Assembly: GCA_016184305.1 (NCBI GenBank)
Contig: JACPCX010000153.1
Location: 1-13,377, forward strand
Direction: 5' to 3'
Source: Candidatus Rokuibacteriota bacterium
GTDB taxonomy: Bacteria > Methylomirabilota > Methylomirabilia > Rokubacteriales > CSP1-6
Length of the DNA stretch: 13,377 nt
Part shown: piece after piece, positions 5,501 to 13,377 of the stretch
Position numbering within the stretch: the stretch's first letter is position 1
How the letters are laid out: the number at the start of each line of letters is the position of its first letter
Notes under the pieces: model-generated
Database searches by the model: none
Told to the model about the DNA's origin: nothing
The model's input: only the letters and a program-made list of their open reading frames with translations
Made by a program: the position numbers and the translations under genes

Positions 5501-6345
5501 GCGGGTTCCTCGCCCACCACGCGGTCGATACGGGTCAGGAGATCGCTGACCGTCCGTCCCGTGCGTGCCAGGTGCAGGAAGAATTCGCGGTTGCCCTTCA
5601 GTCCTCTGAGCGGGGAGGCCGTGATTCCTCGGACATGCCAGCCGTGGAGGACGGCGAAGCGGGCCACCCGCTCGATCACCGTCCGGTGCTGGGCCGGGTC
5701 GCGCACGACGCCGCCCTTGCCGACGAGCCCCTTCCCCACCTCGAACTGCGGTTTCACGAGGGCCACGACCTCTCCGTCCACGGTCAGCGAGCCGAACACG
5801 GGAGGCAGCACCTTCTCCAGCGAGATGAACGACACGTCCACCGTCGCCAGCCCCAGGGCCTCGGGGAACGCCCCGGGCGTGAGCGTCCGGGCGTTGACCC
5901 GCTCCATGACGATCACCCGGGCGTCCGCCCTGAGGCTCTGGTCGAGCTGCCCGTGCCCCACGTCCACCGCGTACACGCGCCCTGCTCCGCGCTCGAGCAG
6001 ACAGTGCGTGAACCCCCCGGTGGAGGCGCCGACGTCGAGACACACCCGCTTCTCGGTGGCGATGCCGAAGGCGTCGAGGGCGGGGGCCAGCTTGTCGCCG
6101 CCGCGGCTCACGAAGCGAGGCTTCGCCGCCACCTCCAGCGTTGCGGCAGCGGTGACTACCGCGCCGGCCTTGTCCACCCGCCGACCATCCACCATCACCG
6201 CTCCCGCGAGGATGAGCCGCGTGGCCTTCTCCCGGCTCGTCGCAAGGCCGCGCTGCACGAGCGCGTTGTCCAGGCGCTCCCTGGCAGTCCGGCCAGCATC
6301 GCGCCCCGGGGCGCTCGGCACCCTCGCCACCCTCTCTCGCTTCAC
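5497..6345 (-). CDS. tlyA: TlyA-family rRNA 2'-O-methyltransferase (S4 + FtsJ-like domain), about 282 aa
   Basis: ERLDNALVQRGL...SREKA (S4), FVSRGGDKL, LDVGASTGGFT, VYAVDVGHGQL, DVSFISL, LVKPQFE, GNREF. Start placed at GTG 6345 (GTGA overlap with the upstream stop, AAGGGG upstream); ATG at 6363 is an alternative. Confidence 0.95.
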   Translation of the reverse strand: MKRERVARVPSAPGRDAGRTARERLDNALVQRGLATSREKATRLILAGAVMVDGRRVDKAGAVVTAAATLEVAAKPRFVSRGGDKLAPALDAFGIATEKRVCLDVGASTGGFTHCLLERGAGRVYAVDVGHGQLDQSLRADARVIVMERVNARTLTPGAFPEALGLATVDVSFISLEKVLPPVFGSLTVDGEVVALVKPQFEVGKGLVGKGGVVRDPAQHRTVIERVARFAVLHGWHVRGITASPLRGLKGNREFFLHLARTGRTVSDLLTRIDRVVGEEPA

Positions 6346-8849
6346 GCGGTCCCCTTTCTCCATCCGTCGATGCGCTCCCGGTACTCCTCGGCCAGCACGC
6401 GCGCCCGGTCGCGATCCACCGACTCGGCCACCACGTGAAAGCAGGCCCGGTCGGCGTCGGGAATCGCCGCGACCCACTCCTCGCCCCGCGTGAGCCGCAC
6501 GCCCTCGATCAGCTCCACGTCGTCGCCCTTCGTGGCCTCGATGAGGCGGCGCATGACGGCACCCTTGCGCTCGTCCGGGCACGGCACCTCCACGCGCACC
6601 ACGTGGGTCTCTGGCACGGCCCGCGTGAGCTGGTGAAGCCGCACGTCCAGCCGCGCCATCATCTCGAGGATCGTGACGACGGCGGCCATGCCGTCGAAGG
6701 CCGGCTGGAAGCGCGGGAAGATCAGCCCGCCCTTCTCCTCCCCGACGAGCACCACGTCGCTGCCGAGCGCGGCCTCGGTCAGGGCGCGCAGTGTGCCCCG
6801 CGACCGGGTGACCGTGAAGCCGTGCTCCGCTGCGAGGCGCTCGACGGAGCGCGAGGCGGTGACGGGGACCACGATGCGGCCCCCCGGCTGTGTCCGCATC
6901 ACGAGAAGCGAGACCAGCGCCAGCGTCAGATCACCGGCGAGGATCTCGCCCTTCTCGTCCACCAGGAAGACCTTCTCGCCGCCAGTGTCCAGCAGGACGC
7001 CGAGGTCGGCCCCCAGCGTGCGCACGATGTTGGACAGCTGGGTGAGTGAACGCTGGAACTCCTCCGCGGTCTTCGAGATCCGGCGCTCGTCCAGATAGGC
7101 GTTCAGCGAGATGACGTCGACGCCGAGCGCACCCAGCACGCCGGGGAAGATCGACGAGGCCGACCCGAAGGCGTAGTCGAGCACCATTCTCAGGCCGGCC
7201 CGGCGCACGAGGTCCGCGTCCACCGACTTCAGGAGTCCGTCCCGGTACCGGTCGGTGCCTGCGTGTGGGAACGTCAGGAGGCCGGTCTCCTCCGTCGGGG
7301 CCCGGTAGAAGTCCTCGGTGAAGAAGAGCCGCTCCACCGCCTTCTCGCGATCAGGAGCGCACTCGATGCCTCGCCCATCGAAGAACTTCACGTCGATGAG
7401 CTCGGGGTCGTACGGGGACTTCCGGACATGGGTGCCACCCGCCAGGCCAAGGGACGAGATCTGATACCGCACCACCGGTACGGGCGCCACACCGAGGTCC
7501 TGCACATCCACGCCCACCGACAGCAGCCCCGCCATCAGCGCCCGGTTGATCATCCGCGAGGCCTTGTGGTGATCGCGGCTCGTGAGGACGACTCGCCGCC
7601 GCCCCAGCGTCGAGCCGTACGCAGCGCCGAGCTTGGCCGCGAACTCGGGAGAGATCTCGATGTTCGCCAGCCCCGACACCCCGTAGGGACCGAAGATCGA
7701 CCGGCTCCAGCGCTCGCCCCAGACGAGGCTCGTGGCCAGCGTTGCGCCGTCCTCCACTTCCTTGTACGGCCAGACCTTGGCGTTGGCCTTGATGACGCTC
7801 GACTCGCCGATCTTGCAGAAGTCGCCGACCACCACCCCCTCGGCGAGGAAGGCGTTGGCTCCGATGGCCGCCTTCCGGCAGACGATGGCTTCCTTGATGG
7901 TCGCCCCGGGCCCGACCTGAACGTCCGCCCAGAGCACGCTCCCCTCGATGTCAGCCCCTGTCTGGATCACCGAGCCGGCGCCGATGACGCAGTTGGCGAG
8001 GCGTGCCCCGGGCGCCACCTGGACCCCTCGCCCGAGGATGACCGACCCCGAGAGCTTCGCGGTGTAGTCCACACGCGCCCCCTCGTCGAGCCACACCGTG
8101 TGGCCGGTGCCCTCGTGACGGGTCCCGGCGATGTCCACGCCCACCACGCCCTGAAGCAGGTCGATGTGGGCCTTCCGGTACTCGCTGAGGTCGCCCACGT
8201 CCCGCCAGTACCCCTCCGCCACGTGGCCGTAGAGCGGGCGCCCCGAGGCCAGGAGCGCAGGGAAGAGCTCCTTGCCGAAGTCATACGGTCGTCCGGAAGG
8301 TACGGCGGCGAGGGCGGCCGGCTGGAGGACGTAGATACCGGTGTTGATCGTGTCGCTGAACACCTCGCCCCACGTCGGCTTCTCGAGGAACCGGATCACG
8401 CGCCCGGCTGGATCGGTGATGACGATGCCGTAGGCGAGCGGCGACTCCACGCGGGTCAGGACCATCGTGGCCTCGGCGGCGCAATCCCGGTGGAAGGCCA
8501 CCGCGGCGGCGAGATCGAAGTCCGTGATCACGTCGCCGGACGTGACGAGCACGGGCTCCGCGAGCTCCCCGGCGGCGAACTTCACGGCTCCGGCCGTGCC
8601 GAGGTCGGCCGTGGGAGTCACGTAGCTCATCCGGACGCCCCAGGGTGCGCCGTCGCCGAAGTGAGCGATGATGGTCTCCGGCAGGAAGTACAGGAGGACG
8701 ACCAGATCGGTGAAGCCGTGCCGCTGCAGCAGCCGCACCGTGTGTTCCATGATCGGCACGTTTCCGATCGGCACCAGCGGCTTGGGGAGATGGGTCGTGA
8801 GCGGGCGCAGCCGCGTCCCGAACCCCCCCGCCATGATCACTGCCTTCAT
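6342..8849 (-). CDS. Sugar-phosphate nucleotidyltransferase (mannose-1-phosphate guanylyltransferase-like) fused to hexapeptide repeats and a phosphoglucomutase/phosphomannomutase-like region, 835 aa
   Basis: MKAVIMAGGFGTRLRPLT..PKPL, GTAGAV, FLEKP, INTGIY, YWRDVG; beta-helix hexapeptide stretch; then IFGPYGVSG, SRDHH, LDYAFGSAS, GEEKGG, DG-type mutase fold motifs. AGGAG Shine-Dalgarno at 8856-8860. Confidence 0.9.
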   Translation of the reverse strand: MKAVIMAGGFGTRLRPLTTHLPKPLVPIGNVPIMEHTVRLLQRHGFTDLVVLLYFLPETIIAHFGDGAPWGVRMSYVTPTADLGTAGAVKFAAGELAEPVLVTSGDVITDFDLAAAVAFHRDCAAEATMVLTRVESPLAYGIVITDPAGRVIRFLEKPTWGEVFSDTINTGIYVLQPAALAAVPSGRPYDFGKELFPALLASGRPLYGHVAEGYWRDVGDLSEYRKAHIDLLQGVVGVDIAGTRHEGTGHTVWLDEGARVDYTAKLSGSVILGRGVQVAPGARLANCVIGAGSVIQTGADIEGSVLWADVQVGPGATIKEAIVCRKAAIGANAFLAEGVVVGDFCKIGESSVIKANAKVWPYKEVEDGATLATSLVWGERWSRSIFGPYGVSGLANIEISPEFAAKLGAAYGSTLGRRRVVLTSRDHHKASRMINRALMAGLLSVGVDVQDLGVAPVPVVRYQISSLGLAGGTHVRKSPYDPELIDVKFFDGRGIECAPDREKAVERLFFTEDFYRAPTEETGLLTFPHAGTDRYRDGLLKSVDADLVRRAGLRMVLDYAFGSASSIFPGVLGALGVDVISLNAYLDERRISKTAEEFQRSLTQLSNIVRTLGADLGVLLDTGGEKVFLVDEKGEILAGDLTLALVSLLVMRTQPGGRIVVPVTASRSVERLAAEHGFTVTRSRGTLRALTEAALGSDVVLVGEEKGGLIFPRFQPAFDGMAAVVTILEMMARLDVRLHQLTRAVPETHVVRVEVPCPDERKGAVMRRLIEATKGDDVELIEGVRLTRGEEWVAAIPDADRACFHVVAESVDRDRARVLAEEYRERIDGWRKGTA

Positions 8850-8930: not shown

Positions 8931-9653
8931 CTACCGCCAGCGGGAGGCCCCGCGCGGACGCATCACGAAGAGCAGCCCCATCCCGGCCAGGAAGCCTCCG
9001 ATATGGGCGAACCAGGCGACGCCCCCGCCTGCGCCCTGGCCCCTGGCCGCCGCCACGCCCACCGACAGGAACCCGTTCAGGAGCTGCACCACGATCCAGA
9101 AGCCCAGCACGAACAGCGCAGGGATGCGCACGAGGCGGATGAAGAATCCGAAGGTGACGAGCGTCAGCACGTTGGCATGGGGGAAGAGGAGCAGGTAGGC
9201 CCCGAGCACTCCCGACACGGCGCCGCTGGCCCCGATCATCGGGACGGTCGAGCCCGGGCCCGTCAGCGTCTGCGCGAGCGCGGCGGCCACGCCGCTCAGG
9301 AGGTAGAACGCGAGGAAGCGCCCGTGGCCCAGGGTGTCCTCCACGTTGTTGCCGAAGATCCACAGATAGAGCATGTTGCCTCCGACGTGGAAGAGGCCCC
9401 CGTGAAGGAACATGGAGGTGAAGACGGTCAGGAACGGTGAGGGCATCCCGAGCGCGTCCCGGCATTGCCCGGTCAGCCGGCACGGGATCAGCCCGAACTC
9501 GAGGACGAGCTCCTGCGCGGCGCGGCCACCGCCCCCGGGCCCCTCACCGCTCAGGGAGAACTGATACATGAAGGCAAGAATGTTCATCGCAATCAACCCC
9601 ACCGTCACCACCGGGACGGAGCCACTGGGGATGTCGTCCTTGAGCGGAAGCAT
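8931..9653 (-). CDS. Rhomboid-family intramembrane serine protease, 240 aa
   Basis: TSMFLHGGLFHVGGNMLYLWIFGNNVED, catalytic GASG, AHIGGF histidine, multiple hydrophobic helices. Confidence 0.95.
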   Translation of the reverse strand: MLPLKDDIPSGSVPVVTVGLIAMNILAFMYQFSLSGEGPGGGGRAAQELVLEFGLIPCRLTGQCRDALGMPSPFLTVFTSMFLHGGLFHVGGNMLYLWIFGNNVEDTLGHGRFLAFYLLSGVAAALAQTLTGPGSTVPMIGASGAVSGVLGAYLLLFPHANVLTLVTFGFFIRLVRIPALFVLGFWIVVQLLNGFLSVGVAAARGQGAGGGVAWFAHIGGFLAGMGLLFVMRPRGASRWR

Positions 9654-9677: not shown

Positions 9678-10985
9678 CTACTGCCCGGGCGGCCGGAGGC
9701 TCACGACCGTCGGCAACCCCAGATACGCCCGCGCCACTCGCTGCACGTCCTCGGCGGTGATGGCCTGCACCGCCCGAACGTAGCGCTCGACGAAATCGTG
9801 GCCCACCCCGGCAGACTCGAAGAAGGCCTGATACCACGCCAGTCGCGCGTTGGTGCGGCGGTCCAGGGCGAACTGCCCGAGCAGGTATGTCCTGGCGCGC
9901 GCCACTTCCTCGGCGCCGAGTGCCTCGCGTCCCAGTCGCGCGAGCTCCTTTCGGATGCCCTCTTCAGCCTTCTCGGCGTTCGCCGGAGCCGTTCCGAGAT
10001 ACGCCACCAGCACACCCCGTCCCACGCGTGAGGGGTAGAAGGCGCCCGTGGAGTAGGCGAGGCCCTGCTTGTCGCGAAGCTCCCTGAAGAGTCGGCCCGC
10101 CATGCCGCCGCCGAGGGCCGTCGAGAGCACCTTCATGGCGGCGTAGTCCGGGTGGCTGAGGGGCGGGGCGAGCACGCCGACCAGCACCTGCGCCTGCGCG
10201 GCCGGGTGGGTCACGATCGTGCGCTCCGCTGCCGTGGGGGCGACCGGCGCCGCTGCGGCAGCTTCCCCCTCACCGGCAGGCATCGACGCAAACAGCCGCG
10301 CGATCTCGGCCGCGACCTCGCGTGCCGCCACCTGCCCGCTCACCGACACCACAGTACGGCCGGCGCGATAATGCTGCCGGTAGTGCTCCAGCAGATCCTC
10401 GCGGCCGAGCCGCGCCACCACCTCGCGCCGGCCCAGGCTCGGCAGGGCATACGGATGCCCTCGGTAGACGTGTTCCATGAGCGTTTCCAGCGCGCGCTGG
10501 AACGGCTGGTCCGTCCGGCTGCGGATAGCGCTCAGGACGACACGGCGCTCCCCCTCGATCTCGGATGCGGCCAGGGCGGGACGGAGAGCGATGTCGGCCA
10601 CGAGCTCCAGCAGCTCTCGCCAGTGCCGCGCCAGCGCGCTGCCCCGGATCTCGGAGAAATCCGTCTCGGCCGAGGCGCTCACGCTTCCGCCGATCCCTTC
10701 GGCCGTCTCGGCGATCTCGAGTGCCCTCCGGCGCTCCGTGCCCTTCACCATGACCTGCTGCAGGAGGTTGGTGATGCCCGAGCTCGCCGGACGCTCCCAC
10801 CCCGATCCCACCCGCACGAGCAGGGAGACCGCCACGACCGGGGCAGCGGGGTTCTCGCGCACGAGAATCGTCAGTCCGCTCGGCAGACGCTGCCGCAAAA
10901 CCGGGATCTCCTCCGTCCCGCCTGCCGGGGTGGAAGCCAGCAGGATCGCCGACAGGGCATACCCGGTGAGGCACCCCTTCTTCAC
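9678..10985 (-). CDS. M16B peptidase-family protein, non-catalytic subunit with probable signal peptide, 435 aa
   Basis: RLPSGLTILV M16 start; HxxEH position reads NLLQQ (GITNLLQQVMVKGT); keeps RLFRELRDKQGLAYS R/Y motif; N-terminus MKKGCLTGYALSAILLASTPAGG; GTG start overlaps the upstream stop (GTGA). Confidence 0.9.
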   Translation of the reverse strand: MKKGCLTGYALSAILLASTPAGGTEEIPVLRQRLPSGLTILVRENPAAPVVAVSLLVRVGSGWERPASSGITNLLQQVMVKGTERRRALEIAETAEGIGGSVSASAETDFSEIRGSALARHWRELLELVADIALRPALAASEIEGERRVVLSAIRSRTDQPFQRALETLMEHVYRGHPYALPSLGRREVVARLGREDLLEHYRQHYRAGRTVVSVSGQVAAREVAAEIARLFASMPAGEGEAAAAAPVAPTAAERTIVTHPAAQAQVLVGVLAPPLSHPDYAAMKVLSTALGGGMAGRLFRELRDKQGLAYSTGAFYPSRVGRGVLVAYLGTAPANAEKAEEGIRKELARLGREALGAEEVARARTYLLGQFALDRRTNARLAWYQAFFESAGVGHDFVERYVRAVQAITAEDVQRVARAYLGLPTVVSLRPPGQ

Positions 10986-12328
10986 CGGCCGCCGTCCGTG
11001 GGCACGAGCGTGAGCCGAGCGTGGGCGGCGGAGAGGTAGCGCCTGGCGGCGGCCTGGATCTCCTCGCGCGTGACGGTCTTGAGCCGGTCGAGGTAGCTCA
11101 GCTCCCCTTCCAGTGTCCAGAGCGTCTCGGCCAGGCCGTAGGCATAAGCGCGCCCCTCGGCAGTCTCGATCGAGAACGCATGCTGTGCCTCGGCGGCAGT
11201 GATCGCCCGCTGCCGCTCCGCCTCCGTCACGCCCTCCTCCCGCACCCTCGTCACCTCGGCCAGGATCGCCGCCTCCACCGCATCCAGGTCGCCCGACTCG
11301 AGCTGCGCCGTGACGCTCAGAAGCCCGCCGCCCGCCAGCGCCGAGTATCCGGCGCGGATCGACGACACGATCCGGGCCCGCTCCCGCAACGCCTGAGTGA
11401 GCCTGGAGGTCCGGGACCCGCCCAGGATATGCGCCAAGAGGTCGACGGCGAACATGTCGGAGTCACCGAGCCGCGGCCCCGCCCAGCCAACCGCCAGGGA
11501 GGCCTGCCGCTCCGGTCGCTGGCGGACCTCGCGCCGGCCGTCGTCCAGCCTCGGTGGTGCGGGCACCGGTCCCCGACCGTACCCCTGGGCATGCGTCGGG
11601 CCGAACCAGCGTTCCGCTGCCTGACGGATCTCTGCAGGGTCCACCGCGCCGATGACGACCAGGGTCATGTTCTCGGGAACGTAATGCCGCTTGTAGTAGG
11701 CGCGCAGGGTCTCCGGGGTCGCTGCCCGCATGGCGCGAGGATCCCCGAGCACCGGGAAGCCGTAAGAGTGACCTCGGAACGCCAGCTCGTAGAGCCGGCG
11801 AACGAGGAAGCTGCGCGGGTTGTCCTCTCCCAGTCGCACCTCCTCGGAGATGACCTCCCGCTCTCGCCCGACCTCGGCGGGAGCAAAGCGCGAGTTGAAC
11901 GCCATGTCGGCGAGAACCTCGATCCCGCGGTTTCCGTGGGCCGCCGGCAGGAGAATGTAGTAGAAGGTGTAGTCCCACGAGGTCCCGGCGTTGGTTCGTC
12001 CTCCGACGCTCTCGACTTCCCGGTCCACGAACCCGGGGGCCCGGCTGTCGGTGCCCTTGAACAGCATGTGCTCGACGAAATGAGAGAAACCACGCTCGTT
12101 TGGGGCCTCATCGCGCCCGCCCACACCAATCCACAGGTGAAGGGCGACCACGTCGCTCGTGCGGTGCTGCTGGATGATAAGGCGCATCCCGTTCGGGAGA
12201 ACCTCGCGCAACGGAGTGGACAGCCCGGCCTTGGAGAGGACGGGTGGGCCGACGGCGACGCAGCCAGCAAGGCCGATCACCGCCAGCGCCAGCAGCGGGA
12301 AACACACTGGACTGCGGCGGCGCGCCAT
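10982..12328 (-). CDS. M16B zinc metallopeptidase, catalytic subunit, predicted lipoprotein, about 448 aa
   Basis: SHFVEHMLFKGT (HxxEH, 12068-12082), NAGTSWDYT, EREVISEE third ligand region; basic N-terminus, hydrophobic core and lipobox LAGC (12260-12271). Start placed at ATG 12328 because ATG 12334 is only 2 nt from the predicted -10. Confidence 0.93.
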   Translation of the reverse strand: MARRRSPVCFPLLALAVIGLAGCVAVGPPVLSKAGLSTPLREVLPNGMRLIIQQHRTSDVVALHLWIGVGGRDEAPNERGFSHFVEHMLFKGTDSRAPGFVDREVESVGGRTNAGTSWDYTFYYILLPAAHGNRGIEVLADMAFNSRFAPAEVGREREVISEEVRLGEDNPRSFLVRRLYELAFRGHSYGFPVLGDPRAMRAATPETLRAYYKRHYVPENMTLVVIGAVDPAEIRQAAERWFGPTHAQGYGRGPVPAPPRLDDGRREVRQRPERQASLAVGWAGPRLGDSDMFAVDLLAHILGGSRTSRLTQALRERARIVSSIRAGYSALAGGGLLSVTAQLESGDLDAVEAAILAEVTRVREEGVTEAERQRAITAAEAQHAFSIETAEGRAYAYGLAETLWTLEGELSYLDRLKTVTREEIQAAARRYLSAAHARLTLVPTDGGR

Positions 12329-12336
12329 TGACATGA

Positions 12337-12365
12337 AGCCTATCAGACTTTCCGCACCCTCTCAA
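12337..12365 (-). promoter_or_regulatory. Candidate sigma70 promoter TTGAGA-N17-TAGGCT with extended -10 (TGa)
   Basis: -35 at 12360-12365, exact 17-nt spacer, TG-A immediately before the -10 at 12337-12342. Confidence 0.65.
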
Positions 12366-12590
12366 CAGATGGTGGGGCATCCGGTAGCTCGGAGCGGCGC
12401 TGCCAGCGTTACGGATTCAGGAGACTCCCAAGTCGGGCCCAGTAACATGGTCGGAGGTGCCCGGATGGGCCCCTCGCGGCATTCCGCTGCCTCTCGGGGG
12501 ATCTCCCGGGGCAGATTGCCGGGAGCGCCGCTGGAACGGCTCCGGGCAGAACGCCCCCGGGACCTGCCAAGGGATGGGCCTGGTGGCGCG

Positions 12591-12603
12591 TAACTCATTG
12601 ACT
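12591..12603. promoter_or_regulatory. Candidate IHF binding site
   Basis: TAACTCATTGACT versus the reversed consensus YAA-N4-TTGATW (from WATCAA-N4-TTR), one mismatch; about 30 nt upstream of the sigma54 motif. Confidence 0.55.
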
Positions 12604-12632
12604 TCAAGCGCCACCGCCTCGGCTTTCGAGTA

Positions 12633-12648
12633 TGGCATATCACCTGCA
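12633..12648 (+). promoter_or_regulatory. Candidate sigma54 (-24/-12) promoter
   Basis: TGGCATATCACCTGCA: GG (12634-12635), exactly 10 nt, then GC (12646-12647); resembles TGGCAC-N5-TTGCW and points at the gene at 12793. Confidence 0.7.
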
Positions 12649-12792
12649 TCGGTGAAACGCCGAAACACAATTCAGGGAGCACCCAGGAGCAGGTCACAAG
12701 GGTCTCGGGAAGGGCCGCTGGCTCGTGGGGGGTCGGCGGAGGCGGCGGTGGCGTGAGAGGCCGGTTAACCCAGAACGAAAGGAAGGCGGAGA

Positions 12793-13377
12793 ATGAAGAA
12801 GCTGTTCGCAACCCTGACGAGCTTCGTGTTCGTTGTGTCGCTGTCGGCCACGGTGAGCGCGGCCGAGCCGAGCTGCCCGCCTGAGGTGGCGTCAGCGAAG
12901 ACCATGCTGCAGAAGAAGCAGCAGTTGGCCAAGAGCCAGGACGTCCAGGCGCCACGGTCGCTTGCCGGTGCCAAGAGCCAGGACGTCCAGGCCCCGCGCG
13001 GTCAGGATGTGCAGGCGCCGCGGTCTCTGGCTGGTGCCAGGAGCCAGGATGTGCAGGCTCCGCGTGCCCAGGACGTGCAGGCTCCTCGCAGTCAGAACGT
13101 GCAGGCTCCGCGTGCCCAGGATGTCCAGGCCCCGCGCGCCCAGGACGTGCAGGCGCCGCGGTCTCTGGCTGGTGCTAGGAGCCAGGATGTGCAGGCTCCG
13201 CGTGCCCAGGATGTCCAGGCGCCGCGTGCCCAGGACGTGCAGGCTCCGCGCAGTCAGAACGTGCAGGCTCCGCGTGCGAGCATCACCAAGGCCGCTACCT
13301 TCGTGAAGGAAGCGGAGGCCGCGTGCAAGGCAGGCAACGCCAGCCTGGCGACCGAGAAGGCCAAGGCTGCCATCGCG
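12793..13377 (+). CDS. Secreted hypothetical protein with tandem QDVQAPR repeats (3' end off the right edge; at least 195 aa)
   Basis: Open from ATG 12793 to the window end; AGGAAGG RBS-like at 12780-12786; signal peptide MKKLFATLTSFVFVVSLSATVSA-AEP; repeat differences are almost all synonymous in this frame. Confidence 0.9.
   Translation, partial: MKKLFATLTSFVFVVSLSATVSAAEPSCPPEVASAKTMLQKKQQLAKSQDVQAPRSLAGAKSQDVQAPRGQDVQAPRSLAGARSQDVQAPRAQDVQAPRSQNVQAPRAQDVQAPRAQDVQAPRSLAGARSQDVQAPRAQDVQAPRAQDVQAPRSQNVQAPRASITKAATFVKEAEAACKAGNASLATEKAKAAIA
12934..13275 (+). repeat. Coding tandem repeat: 12 x 24-bp units ([S/A/G]Q[D/N]VQAPR) plus 3 x 18-bp spacers (SLAGA[K/R])
   Basis: Direct translation; 12x24 + 3x18 = 342 bp exactly fills 12934-13275. 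Confidence 0.97.

Follow-up and report, generated by a model that had tools for sequence, protein, structure and literature searches.

Introduction

Polyprotein precursors that are cut at basic residues are known from yeast prepro-alpha-factor, which is processed by Kex2, from the fungal Kex2-processed repeat proteins, and from the neuropeptide precursors of animals. The repeat protein that we describe here is alike in that a signal peptide is followed by tandem copies of one short peptide, with a basic residue bounding each copy and a variable linker residue beside the basic site, and in that copy number differs between relatives. Unlike these precursors, however, it is bacterial and Sec-exported, has single Arg sites instead of Lys-Arg pairs, and is predicted to enclose its repeats in a conserved two-Cys helical cap. 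Moreover, its gene has no linked subtilisin-type convertase.

A second comparison is with the ZraP/CpxP/Spy proteins. Expression of zraP depends on sigma-54 and ZraR, while CpxP passes its substrates to DegP and is degraded along with them. The repeat protein likewise appears to be a small exported helical protein made on demand, here through sigma-54 and a private activator site, and its gene lies beside an HtrA-family protease in most relatives. In contrast, activator and sensor are not encoded alongside it, the protein carries two conserved Cys along with a long repeat loop, and a search of Pfam and NCBIfam at E <= 0.01 gave no match to the ZraP/CpxP/Spy (LTXXQ) family profile. Hydrophilins and LEA proteins, in turn, share with the repeat protein a hydrophilic, disordered character and short tandem repeats, but the latter is exported, has sequence-constrained units and a putative folded cap, and matched no LEA or other family over the cut-off in a Pfam search.

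Pairs of M16B proteins are known to mature RiPP precursors, as AlbF/AlbE do for subtilosin and PqqF does for PqqA, and for most bacterial M16B pairs the physiological substrate is given as unknown (PMC12731061, including its Table 2). As in these RiPP systems, an active/inactive M16B pair lies beside a small gene for a secreted peptide at the present locus. The locus nevertheless lacks a radical-SAM or other modifying enzyme, its product carries a Sec signal instead of a leader, and the M16B block predates the repeat gene, each surviving without the other. The pair itself resembles MPP alpha/beta and the bacterial heterodimers SPH2681/2682 and TTHA1264/1265, with two M16 + M16_C proteins, HxxEH in one and a glycine-rich loop in the other; it differs from them in that the active subunit is a predicted lipoprotein and the pair belongs, together with a rhomboid, to a housekeeping block. 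Here we establish the anatomy of the repeat protein, the architecture of its promoter, the selection acting on its units and the history of its synteny.

Anatomy and conservation of the repeat protein

The window, i.e. the whole stretch of 13,377 nucleotides that was analysed, comprises all of contig C109. Its relevant features are the following.

8931..9653, minus strand: rhomboid intramembrane protease (Pfam PF01694, E 2.4e-33)
9678..10985, minus strand: M16B inactive subunit, with NLLQQ in place of HxxEH and a glycine-rich LGGGMAGR loop (Pfam; 21 orthologues aligned)
10982..12334, minus strand: M16B active subunit, predicted lipoprotein (lipobox LAGC, HFVEH; Pfam PF00675 + PF05193)
12510..12520, plus strand: candidate activator (EBP) site 1, GGCAGATTGCC, palindrome GGCA-N3-TGCC, 124 nt before the -24 GG
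12545..12555, plus strand: candidate upstream site 2, GGCAGAACGCC, 89 nt before the -24 GG and 35 nt after site 1
12633..12648, plus strand: sigma-54-type -24/-12 promoter TGGCATATCACCTGCA (pattern match, conserved in relatives)
12649..12792, plus strand: 5' untranslated region; the ATG is preceded by a purine-rich ribosome-binding stretch
12793..12861, plus strand: predicted signal peptide MKKLFATLTSFVFVVSLSATVSA, with an A-x-A type site assigned by eye (conserved in homologues)
12862..12933, plus strand: N-terminal cap helix with Cys28, AEPSCPPEVASAKTMLQKKQQLAK (alignment of 62 sequences; AF2)
12934..13275, plus strand: repeat loop, 12 units xQ(D/N)VQAPR and three spacers SLAGA(R/K) (script count, Tandem Repeats Finder, AF2)
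13276..13377, plus strand: C-terminal cap, two helices with Cys178 (KEAEAACKAGN...); last three codons, stops and terminator hairpin on contig C230

The ORF of the repeat gene (12793..13377, plus strand) is 3'-truncated and runs off the contig end. Beyond the last 99 nt of C109, which it carries again, contig C230 extends the sequence by no more than I-L-K, two stops and a GC hairpin with its T run, and the protein would as such be about 198 residues long, provided the repeat array was assembled correctly. By script, the loop holds exactly 12 octapeptides (SQDVQAPR four times, AQDVQAPR five times, GQDVQAPR once and SQNVQAPR twice) and three hexapeptide spacers (SLAGAK once, SLAGAR twice), while Tandem Repeats Finder reports periods of 24, 66 and 138 with a best score of 448. 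The last residue of all 12 octapeptides and all three spacers is R or K. A first-pass annotation of this DNA had arrived at the same count, and had taken the product to be secreted, in agreement with the signal peptide predicted in the translation and conserved in homologues.

At the DNA level, 10 of the 12 units differ, whereas their 7-residue core exists in only two peptide versions, and therefore the repeats are not recent copies. Within this core, pS amounts to 0.53 and pN to 0.019 (pN/pS 0.036), against a pN/pS of 0.75 for the first residue of the unit. The core is thus under strong purifying selection, with each unit individually constrained.

The repeat protein represents an undescribed family that is confined to one family-level clade of Rokubacteria/Methylomirabilota, where it is present in 111 of 125 genomes. 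Among 120 listed homologues, which have 6-18 units each and 1203 in total, R and P of the unit are both conserved at 98.7%, Q5 at 95.3% and Q2 at 91.8%. A small residue (G/S/T/A) follows the P-R in about 90% of these units, and K/R usually precedes the first unit. Units that end in P-R followed by a small residue, and spacers that end in R/K, have the look of endopeptidase sites, an appearance that runs counter to the protein acting intact. Exactly two Cys occur in 109 of the 120 homologues. In an alignment of 62 sequences, C28, V32, K36 and L39 of the N-terminal cap are conserved in at least 90% and A35 in all, while E173, A177, C178, G181 and K189 of the C-terminal cap are invariant; the conservation of cap positions matches that of the units.

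AF2 predicts three confident helices (residues 30-52, 158-179 and 183-194; block pLDDT about 69-85, up to 84 in the N-terminal and 81-85 in the C-terminal block) and a disordered loop, with a pLDDT of about 40 over residues 56-158. Structural matches to the model over residues 24-195 are compact three-helix bundles, e.g. 56 residues at an rmsd of 1.9, which suggests that the three helices pack into a small cap. These predictions bear on two readings of the loop. One is that the octapeptides build up a fibre of the trimeric beta-helix type, as seen in the C-terminal needle of phage T4 gp5, in line with a weak Pfam match to Gp5_trimer_C (PF22178, E 0.0041) and with one Atlas cluster carrying that label on 48% of its members. 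This is extremely unlikely, as the match reaches 17.7 bits against a cut-off of 30.9, AF2 predicts no strand in a loop of such low pLDDT, and the units are hydrophilic with a Pro in each. The other takes the loop for a hydrophilin/LEA-like protectant or an entropic spacer, a hydrated neutral polyampholyte of which only the bulk properties matter. A disordered hydrophilic loop of variable length with one D and one R per unit fits this, as do, if weakly, the habitat labels of relatives (soil and groundwater). However, the low pN/pS of the core and the near-invariance of Q2, Q5, P7 and R8 over the 1203 units point to sequence-specific recognition, and neither LEA nor another Pfam family was matched, which makes this reading quite unlikely in our judgement.

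Control of the repeat gene

The TGGCATATCACCTGCA pattern matches once in the window, both strands included, versus 0.01 matches expected. Of 20 main-locus relatives, 19 have an equivalent -24/-12 element, 102-165 nt upstream of the ATG; relative L032 has TTGA at -12. Further upstream, site 1 is invariant across the four genomes of the genus, and in most loci the -24 element is preceded, at 110-125 nt, by GGCAGAWTGCC. In tandem with GGCASAHYGCC, at a distance of 33-35 nt, it forms a pair of which both members are present in 17 of 23 loci and at least one in 22. This pair has a single occurrence in the 3.2-Mb assembly. Of 121 family genomes, 38 contain it exactly once each; a reversed-pattern control gave 0 of 121. 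The genome furthermore encodes rpoN on contig C168 (Sigma54_DBD, E 3.3e-60) and has 25 Sigma54_activat matches over cut-off, 19 of them with E < 1e-50. As such, conserved promoter, tandem activator-type sites, rpoN and activators together make sigma-54 control of the repeat gene, as proposed in the first-pass annotation, well supported.

For the 5' UTR (12649..12792), no conserved structure (three trivial pairs) and no Rfam family were found. In RNA libraries from four studies, contigs with close relatives of the repeat gene reach a depth of up to 425, in runs that had been chosen with the repeat gene itself; these contigs begin at positions equivalent to about 12678-12720 and none further upstream, although a transcript start cannot be read from contigs. 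Behind the repeat gene, a GC hairpin is present in eight of nine loci with a downstream protease and also in C230, and most of these loci have a clear T run next to it. The strict sigma-54 pattern is absent from the M16 side of the intergenic region. The repeat gene and the M16B pair are separate transcription units.

The M16B pair and its linkage to the repeat gene

Both M16B proteins carry Peptidase_M16 and M16_C domains as well as export signals, HxxEH is present in one only, and H85, E88 and H89 of the active subunit are invariant in 22 orthologues. The exported active/inactive pair divergent from the repeat gene is therefore real, and so is the rhomboid that was noted beside it, even though the latter lies outside the interval 9678..13377 to which the proposed system had been assigned. 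The rhomboid is the last gene of an ancestral block beside the M16B pair, syntenic in both family f1 and its sister family f4.

What had been proposed is cleavage of the loop by the M16B heterodimer, perhaps aided by the rhomboid, either into 12 octapeptides and three hexapeptides or at R-X|Q, where an N-terminal Gln would be exposed. The pair is indeed divergent from and adjacent to the repeat gene in 21 of 36 relatives, but it is not adjacent in six, and nine are unresolved, so that the predicted linkage holds in part. In the sister family, the block SecA-RecN-NadK-TlyA-rhomboid-M16B-M16B is present without a repeat gene in five of five loci, with a HIT gene abutting the active M16B gene in four, while the fifth contig ends there; the M16B linkage is therefore one of ancestry. 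Conversely, in six of the 27 resolved relatives the repeat gene and its promoter persist without the M16B pair beside them (G004, G006, G025, G027 and G029, as well as G021, where a remnant is left). In G004 and G027, both of which are about 90% complete, no M16B match in the whole genome exceeds 34% identity, and five extra copies of the repeat gene (G003:C51, G024:C22, G032:C120, G006:C33 and G033:C424) have no M16 neighbour.

Apart from adjacency, the intact HxxEH of one subunit and the export signals of both would suit a processing role, and the disordered loop predicted by AF2 would be an accessible substrate. M16 enzymes accept unstructured peptides and MPP prefers Arg at P2, yet M16 chambers limit substrate size, e.g. 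to about 65 residues in human PreP (both from PMC12731061). Further against such a role, all 61 genomes searched contain M16 matches, and the M16 side lacks the strict sigma-54 pattern. Since the peptidase block is older than the repeat gene, and either can be found where the other is missing, their adjacency should not be taken as a processing system, and cleavage by this putative heterodimer is very unlikely. Sensor kinases, activators such as enhancer-binding proteins, transporters and modifying enzymes, for which a look at the downstream genes had been suggested, are not conserved downstream in the annotated flanks of 17 loci.

A RiPP cluster with M16B as its maturation protease was likewise considered and rejected, since neither the window nor the annotated flanks of the 17 loci hold a modifying enzyme, with the block without a precursor in all five sister loci, and the precursor without the block in six relatives.

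An HtrA-like neighbour and the possible release of the units

In 19 of the 36 relatives (19 of the 27 resolved), a gene for an HtrA-like protease lies directly downstream of the repeat gene on the same strand. It has been lost from the locus here; because it is missing at the locus in G000, as well as in G001 (remnant), G002, G021, G029, G031 and G035, the protease cannot be obligatory as a partner in cis. Its gene carries a -10-like box and is set apart from the repeat gene by a terminator. In three relatives, a paralogous HtrA-like gene comes directly after a paralogous M16B pair in the same orientation, and a functional tie among these proteases is therefore possible. The closest solved relatives of the enzyme are HTRA1/2, DegS and DegP, which prefer aliphatic residues instead of Arg at P1.

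This preference weighs against the HtrA-like neighbour as the enzyme that would cut a multi-copy precursor into a diffusible signal or antimicrobial; an unlinked Arg-specific endopeptidase could take its place. Such release would agree with the near-invariant P-R of the units and the small residue that follows it in most, with the basic spacers and the basic residue before the first unit, and with the only freely varying position adjoining the putative scissile bond. Moreover, the range of 6-18 units is as expected if copy number only sets dose, and expression of the repeat gene appears strong and inducible. On the other hand, the surroundings of the gene show no conserved gene for a receptor, an exporter or maturation, and the motif is near-invariant in a clade deep enough for M16B orthologues to be only about 50% identical, unlike the fast-diverging signal peptides of bacteria. 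Furthermore, the cap is as strongly conserved as the units, which a mere carrier would not need. We therefore regard release by another enzyme as unlikely, while keeping it in consideration. More boldly, the locus might encode a bacterial 'prohormone', in which a private sigma-54 activator has this gene as its only target and the capped precursor is exported and its loop diced by a periplasmic endopeptidase at the 15 Arg/Lys sites. We offer this idea tentatively, as an unlikely one; if true, the release of one 7-8-residue peptide, conserved clade-wide, in 12 copies here and in dozens of copies in relatives would constitute a signalling or antimicrobial peptide system of the eukaryotic polyprotein type in bacteria.

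Discussion

The reading that we prefer, although we hold the chances of its being right and wrong to be about equal, is that the repeat gene is a stand-alone sigma-54 unit for a Sec-exported cap-and-loop protein, which would act intact in the periplasm as an inducible envelope factor. A dedicated sigma-54 activator would bind the two palindromic sites some 90 and 125 nt upstream of the -24/-12 promoter, a site pair that is the only one in the genome, and transcription would stop at the strong hairpin directly after the gene. The product would fold into a three-helix cap made of one N-terminal helix and a C-terminal helix pair, with one conserved Cys in each part, and these Cys are probably disulfide-linked. 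Between the two parts, the putatively disordered loop with its 12 copies of the QDVQAPR motif may present this short linear motif many times over to a conserved partner. The likeliest partner would be the HtrA-like protease of most relatives, for which the repeat protein could be a substrate, adaptor or decoy. As for the rhomboid-M16B-M16B block, the repeat gene would have been inserted beside this older housekeeping block, which would not be its dedicated processing machinery.

The family is undescribed, yet near-universal in a single large clade of uncultured bacteria from soil and groundwater. Its presence in RNA libraries, together with a private sigma-54 region and units under selection, points to a specific envelope function. 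If the units are released, the repeat protein would be a rare bacterial counterpart of the polyprotein hormone precursors of eukaryotes; if they stay unreleased, it would be a new type of multivalent periplasmic display protein.

Results

The repeat gene encodes a protein that opens with a signal peptide (residues 1-23) and the segment AEPSCPPEV...QQLAK, continues with 12 octapeptides of the form xQ(D/N)VQAPR and three spacers SLAGA(R/K), present in the translation as the first-pass annotation had claimed, and closes with ASITKAATFVKEAEAACKAGNASLATEKAKAAIA(ILK). It lies at the edge of C109, a full contig of 13,377 nt that comes from a metagenome-assembled genome with 69% GC and a completeness of 89%. 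Translation and Pfam place SecA, RecN, NAD kinase, a TlyA/FtsJ-type methyltransferase, a nucleotidyltransferase-phosphomannomutase fusion, a rhomboid and two M16 genes in this order on its minus strand, ahead of the divergent repeat gene:

6342-8849, minus strand: single 835-aa open reading frame with a nucleotidyltransferase, a hexapeptide-repeat domain and three phosphoglucomutase/phosphomannomutase domains
8931-9653, minus strand: rhomboid (Pfam)
9678-10985 and 10982-12334, minus strand: M16 peptidase genes (Pfam)
12793-13377, plus strand: repeat gene, running off the contig end and separated from the M16 genes by a 458-nt gap

The 835-aa fusion is found in the block of some relatives and is missing from that of others.

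Window positions 13279-13377 correspond to positions 1-99 of a second contig of the same assembly (G000:C230), a 99-nt overlap inside the repeat gene. On this contig the gene gains the codons for ILK and ends in two stops; a GC-rich hairpin and its T run come next, and convergent ABC-transporter genes follow. The relative G002 is arranged identically. Because the contig breaks within the repeat gene, the number of repeat units may be inexact. A contig likewise starts or ends within the gene in many relatives (G004, G005, G010, G016, G023, G026, G027, G028 and G032), and searches therefore yield too low a count of the gene and no certain number of units. The apparent absence of the gene from G004 is such an assembly artefact: its contig includes the ribosome-binding site, the promoter and the pair of upstream sites but breaks off exactly at the start codon.

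We show that the repeat protein belongs to an undescribed family that is confined to one clade. No family of Pfam or NCBIfam passes its cut-off for this protein, and searches of article text gave no paper on the protein and none with the motifs QDVQAPR, QDIQAPR, QEVQAPR or QDAQAPR. A word-seeded protein search gave 1,686 matches at E <= 0.01 from 8,000 scored candidates, and where these carry organism names, the names are only Rokuibacteriota and Methylomirabilota. Whole-genome searches found the gene in 34 of the 36 relatives of the host family (f1) and gave marginal matches alone in the sister family f4 (E 0.003-0.01, 4 of 21 genomes). In a phylum-wide sample it is present in 111 of 125 f1 genomes, against none of 75 genomes of 11 other families at E <= 1e-8. 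Two kinds of apparent relationship were discarded: Atg38, the sole PDB profile hit, is a chance match (E 0.0078), and the Atlas labels 'NB glycoprotein' (given to 21% of cluster members) and 'Gp5_trimer_C/Peptidase_M23' were treated as repeat-driven noise.

Among 120 listed homologues, restricted to proteins of 107-342 aa, there are 1,203 units, with 6-18 per protein. Position 1 of the unit is variable (G 50%, S 28.5%, T 6.7%, A 5.6%), and the remainder is strongly fixed: Q2 91.8%, D/E3 89%, V/I/L4 88%, Q5 95.3%, A/S6 99%, P7 98.7% and R8 98.7%. Within the window, 10 of the 12 units have distinct DNA sequences, and their seven-residue core exists in just two peptide versions. Over all unit pairs, which are non-independent and have synonymous sites close to saturation, pS of the core is 0.53 and pN 0.019 (ratio 0.036), against a ratio of 0.75 for the first residue. 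This contrast shows that selection maintains the sequence of each unit, the sole free position being the residue after Arg.

Conservation is not limited to the units. In a 62-sequence alignment the cap positions C28, V32, A35, K36, L39, L170, E173, A174, A177, C178, G181 and K189 are as conserved as the units themselves, and so is the first junction, QAPR-SLAGAR. Exactly two cysteines are present in 109 of the 120 listed homologues; Cys28 as a lipoprotein cysteine was rejected, since the residues that precede it (EPS, QTPS, QSA, ATS) form no lipobox. AlphaFold2, run on the same alignment, predicts helices at 30-52, 158-179 and 183-194 with block pLDDT values of 69-85, and a loop at about 40. 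The top fold matches over model residues 24-195 are generic compact three-helix bundles (e.g. 56 residues, rmsd 1.9), which supports a cap that would form a three-helix bundle; as these matches are generic and reach Z <= 7.8, the fold search assigns no family.

The divergent M16B genes had been read as an exported pair of one active and one inactive subunit, and this reading stands: in the upstream gene HFVEH is present and the N-terminus ends in the lipobox LAGC; in the downstream gene NLLQQ takes the place of HFVEH, and there is a glycine-rich loop; and H85, E88 and H89 are invariant only in the first protein (alignments of 22 and 21 orthologues). In an M16 review (PMC12731061), M16 chambers are described as restricting substrate size, MPP as using Arg at P2, in agreement with the preference that the first-pass annotation had invoked, and bacterial M16B pairs such as TTHA1264/1265 and SPH2681/2682 as mostly without a known physiological substrate, with AlbF/AlbE as the RiPP-linked exception. 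Our search on M16B heterodimers in the periplasm returned only this review, with nothing on the repeat protein, and the searches on Rokubacteria sigma-54 repeats and on bacterial tandem-repeat peptide precursors likewise gave nothing on it. A complex prediction of the M16B pair with loop residues 44-100 scored 0.00 against a mark of 0.32 in a run without controls and carries no weight either way.

The linkage of the repeat gene to the M16B pair was followed by comparing twenty loci from relatives with the window's proteins and extending the tally to 36 f1 relatives. The ancestral f1 order is SecA-RecN-NadK-TlyA-(PMM fusion)-rhomboid-M16B(inactive)-M16B(active), then the repeat gene divergently. 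Repeat gene and M16B pair are adjacent in 21 relatives (G001-3, 8, 10-13, 15-17, 19, 22-24, 28, 30-32, 35 and 36), apart in 6, and have contig ends intervening in 9; if the unpublished genomes G012, one of the adjacent set, and G025, one of the separated set, are left out, the counts become 20, 5 and 9 of 34. In G010 and G015 an inserted 1.3-kb gene, whose translation is a membrane protein carrying a diguanylate-cyclase-type GGEEF motif, separates the repeat gene from the M16B pair:

L027:8217-9473 (locus of G015): GGEEF-motif membrane protein
L034:8320-9537 (locus of G010): GGEEF-motif membrane protein

In the six relatives where the two are apart, the repeat gene adjoins TlyA (G029) or the rhomboid (G025, G027 and G004), the inactive subunit is reduced to its C-terminal half (G021), or two repeat-gene copies sit away from the block (G006). 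In G004 and G027 (89% and 90% complete), nothing in the genome matches the active subunit at more than 34% identity. In f4, the block from SecA through the M16B pair is present in all five loci and the repeat gene in none; in four of them a same-strand HIT-family gene sits immediately beside the active M16B gene, and the fifth has a contig end at that point. In f1 the HIT gene lies beyond the repeat gene, on its far side, and the f1 ancestor thus gained the repeat gene by insertion between the M16B pair and HIT. As the peptidase block predates the gene and persists without it, and the gene persists without the block, the linkage pattern is that of inherited gene order rather than of an enzyme dedicated to its substrate. 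The proposal of a dedicated precursor-M16B system is thus not borne out.

The two copies in G006 (G006:C33, L029:8265-12237) are additional ones and flank a DUF6788 gene and a weak DUF772 transposase-domain match (E 7.5e-05, slightly below the Pfam cut-off). A mobile element may have carried them; one of the two retains the sigma-54 element together with a single upstream site.

A better-linked protease neighbour is found on the other side. In 9 of 17 annotated loci, a Trypsin_2-domain gene of about 440-540 aa stands immediately 3' of the repeat gene in the same orientation; over the 36 relatives it is adjacent in 19 (G025 included) and non-adjacent with the flank seen in 8, which makes 19 of the 27 that could be scored. 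The nearest solved structures to its product are HTRA2, HTRA1, DegS and DegP (E from 4.9e-11), the active-site motif is GNSGGP, and Pfam finds no PDZ domain. This HtrA-like subfamily occurs in 118 of 125 f1 genomes, usually as two paralogues, and in 0 of 16 f4, 9 of 15 f11, 1 of 15 f8 and 1 of 1 f13 genomes. The window's own genome has lost the linked copy and keeps a paralogue (C118:15354-16769), and G001 has a 124-aa remnant (L037:4355-4726). Three relatives carry a paralogous second M16B pair after which, in the same orientation, comes another HtrA-like gene, possibly a protease operon, and a functional tie among the M16B and HtrA-like envelope proteases is possible:

L023:10338-11783 (G003), and 18 other relatives: HtrA-like gene adjoining the repeat gene
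G015:C105 (L050:9369-13466), G010:C25:7492-11654 and G033:C156:7734-11930: second M16B pair with HtrA-like gene

In the eight protease-bearing loci with a resolved intergenic region, the repeat gene is followed by a strong GC hairpin, after which most loci show a clear T run, and several have a TAGAAT-like box a few nt 5' of the protease start codon, so near that the mRNA may be leaderless. Because this terminator hairpin and the protease's own box lie between them, the repeat gene and the HtrA-like gene are neighbours, yet separate units.

The regulatory elements of the repeat gene are:

12510-12520: candidate upstream box 1, GGCAGATTGCC, a GGCA-N3-TGCC palindrome, invariant in within-genus footprinting
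12545-12555: candidate upstream box 2, GGCAGAACGCC, likewise invariant
12633-12648: sigma-54 element TGGCATATCACCTGCA, the window's single match, both strands included, to TGGCAY-N5-YTGCW (0.01 expected)

Of 20 main-locus relatives, 19 have a similar sigma-54 element 102-165 nt 5' of the ATG, and the twentieth has TTGA at -12. Of 23 loci, 17 have the two boxes together and 22 have one or both, at 110-125 and 75-99 nt upstream of the -24 GG. In the G000 assembly the tandem is found a single time, and the strict pattern exactly once per genome in 38 of 121 family genomes (reversed-pattern control: 0 of 121), just 5' of the repeat gene wherever coordinates are comparable. No second target of the pair was found in G000 or across the 121 genomes, and therefore regulation indicates no partner. 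G000 encodes rpoN and 19 strong activator-domain genes, none of which adjoins the repeat gene. Between the upstream sites and the -24 element, an AT-rich patch (12590-12610) in this 69%-GC DNA, similar in most relatives, resembles by eye a site for a DNA-bending protein. The 5' UTR has no conserved structure in an alignment of 19 loci, and the sole Rfam match over 12250-12900, to a miRNA, is chance (E 0.27).

RNA-library contigs from four studies carry close relatives of the repeat gene (88-99% alike) that start at about 12678-12720; one has a depth of 425 and none extends 5' of the promoter. This agrees with the promoter but is weak evidence, since contigs cannot show a transcript start and the runs had been found by means of the gene itself. 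The M16 gene is nearly uncovered in the metatranscriptome contigs; because the runs were selected with the repeat gene, this gives no ranking of expression between the two.

Discussion

In this study, we show a stand-alone gene under sigma-54/activator control, whose predicted exported product combines a small, conserved helical cap with a disordered loop of selection-constrained, Arg-terminated units. So is this loop cut into peptides, or does the protein act whole? The sequence A-P-R followed by G, S, T or A looks like a series of protease sites, and some trypsin-fold enzymes prefer Pro at P2; because of this resemblance, we consider release of peptides unlikely rather than negligible. Against it stand the conserved cap, the invariance of the motif across the clade, and the absence of genes for a receptor, an exporter or a modifying enzyme, and for these same reasons we favour an intact, multivalent periplasmic factor. 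CpxP, for comparison, acts together with DegP. By analogy, the intact repeat protein may work together with the HtrA-like protease.
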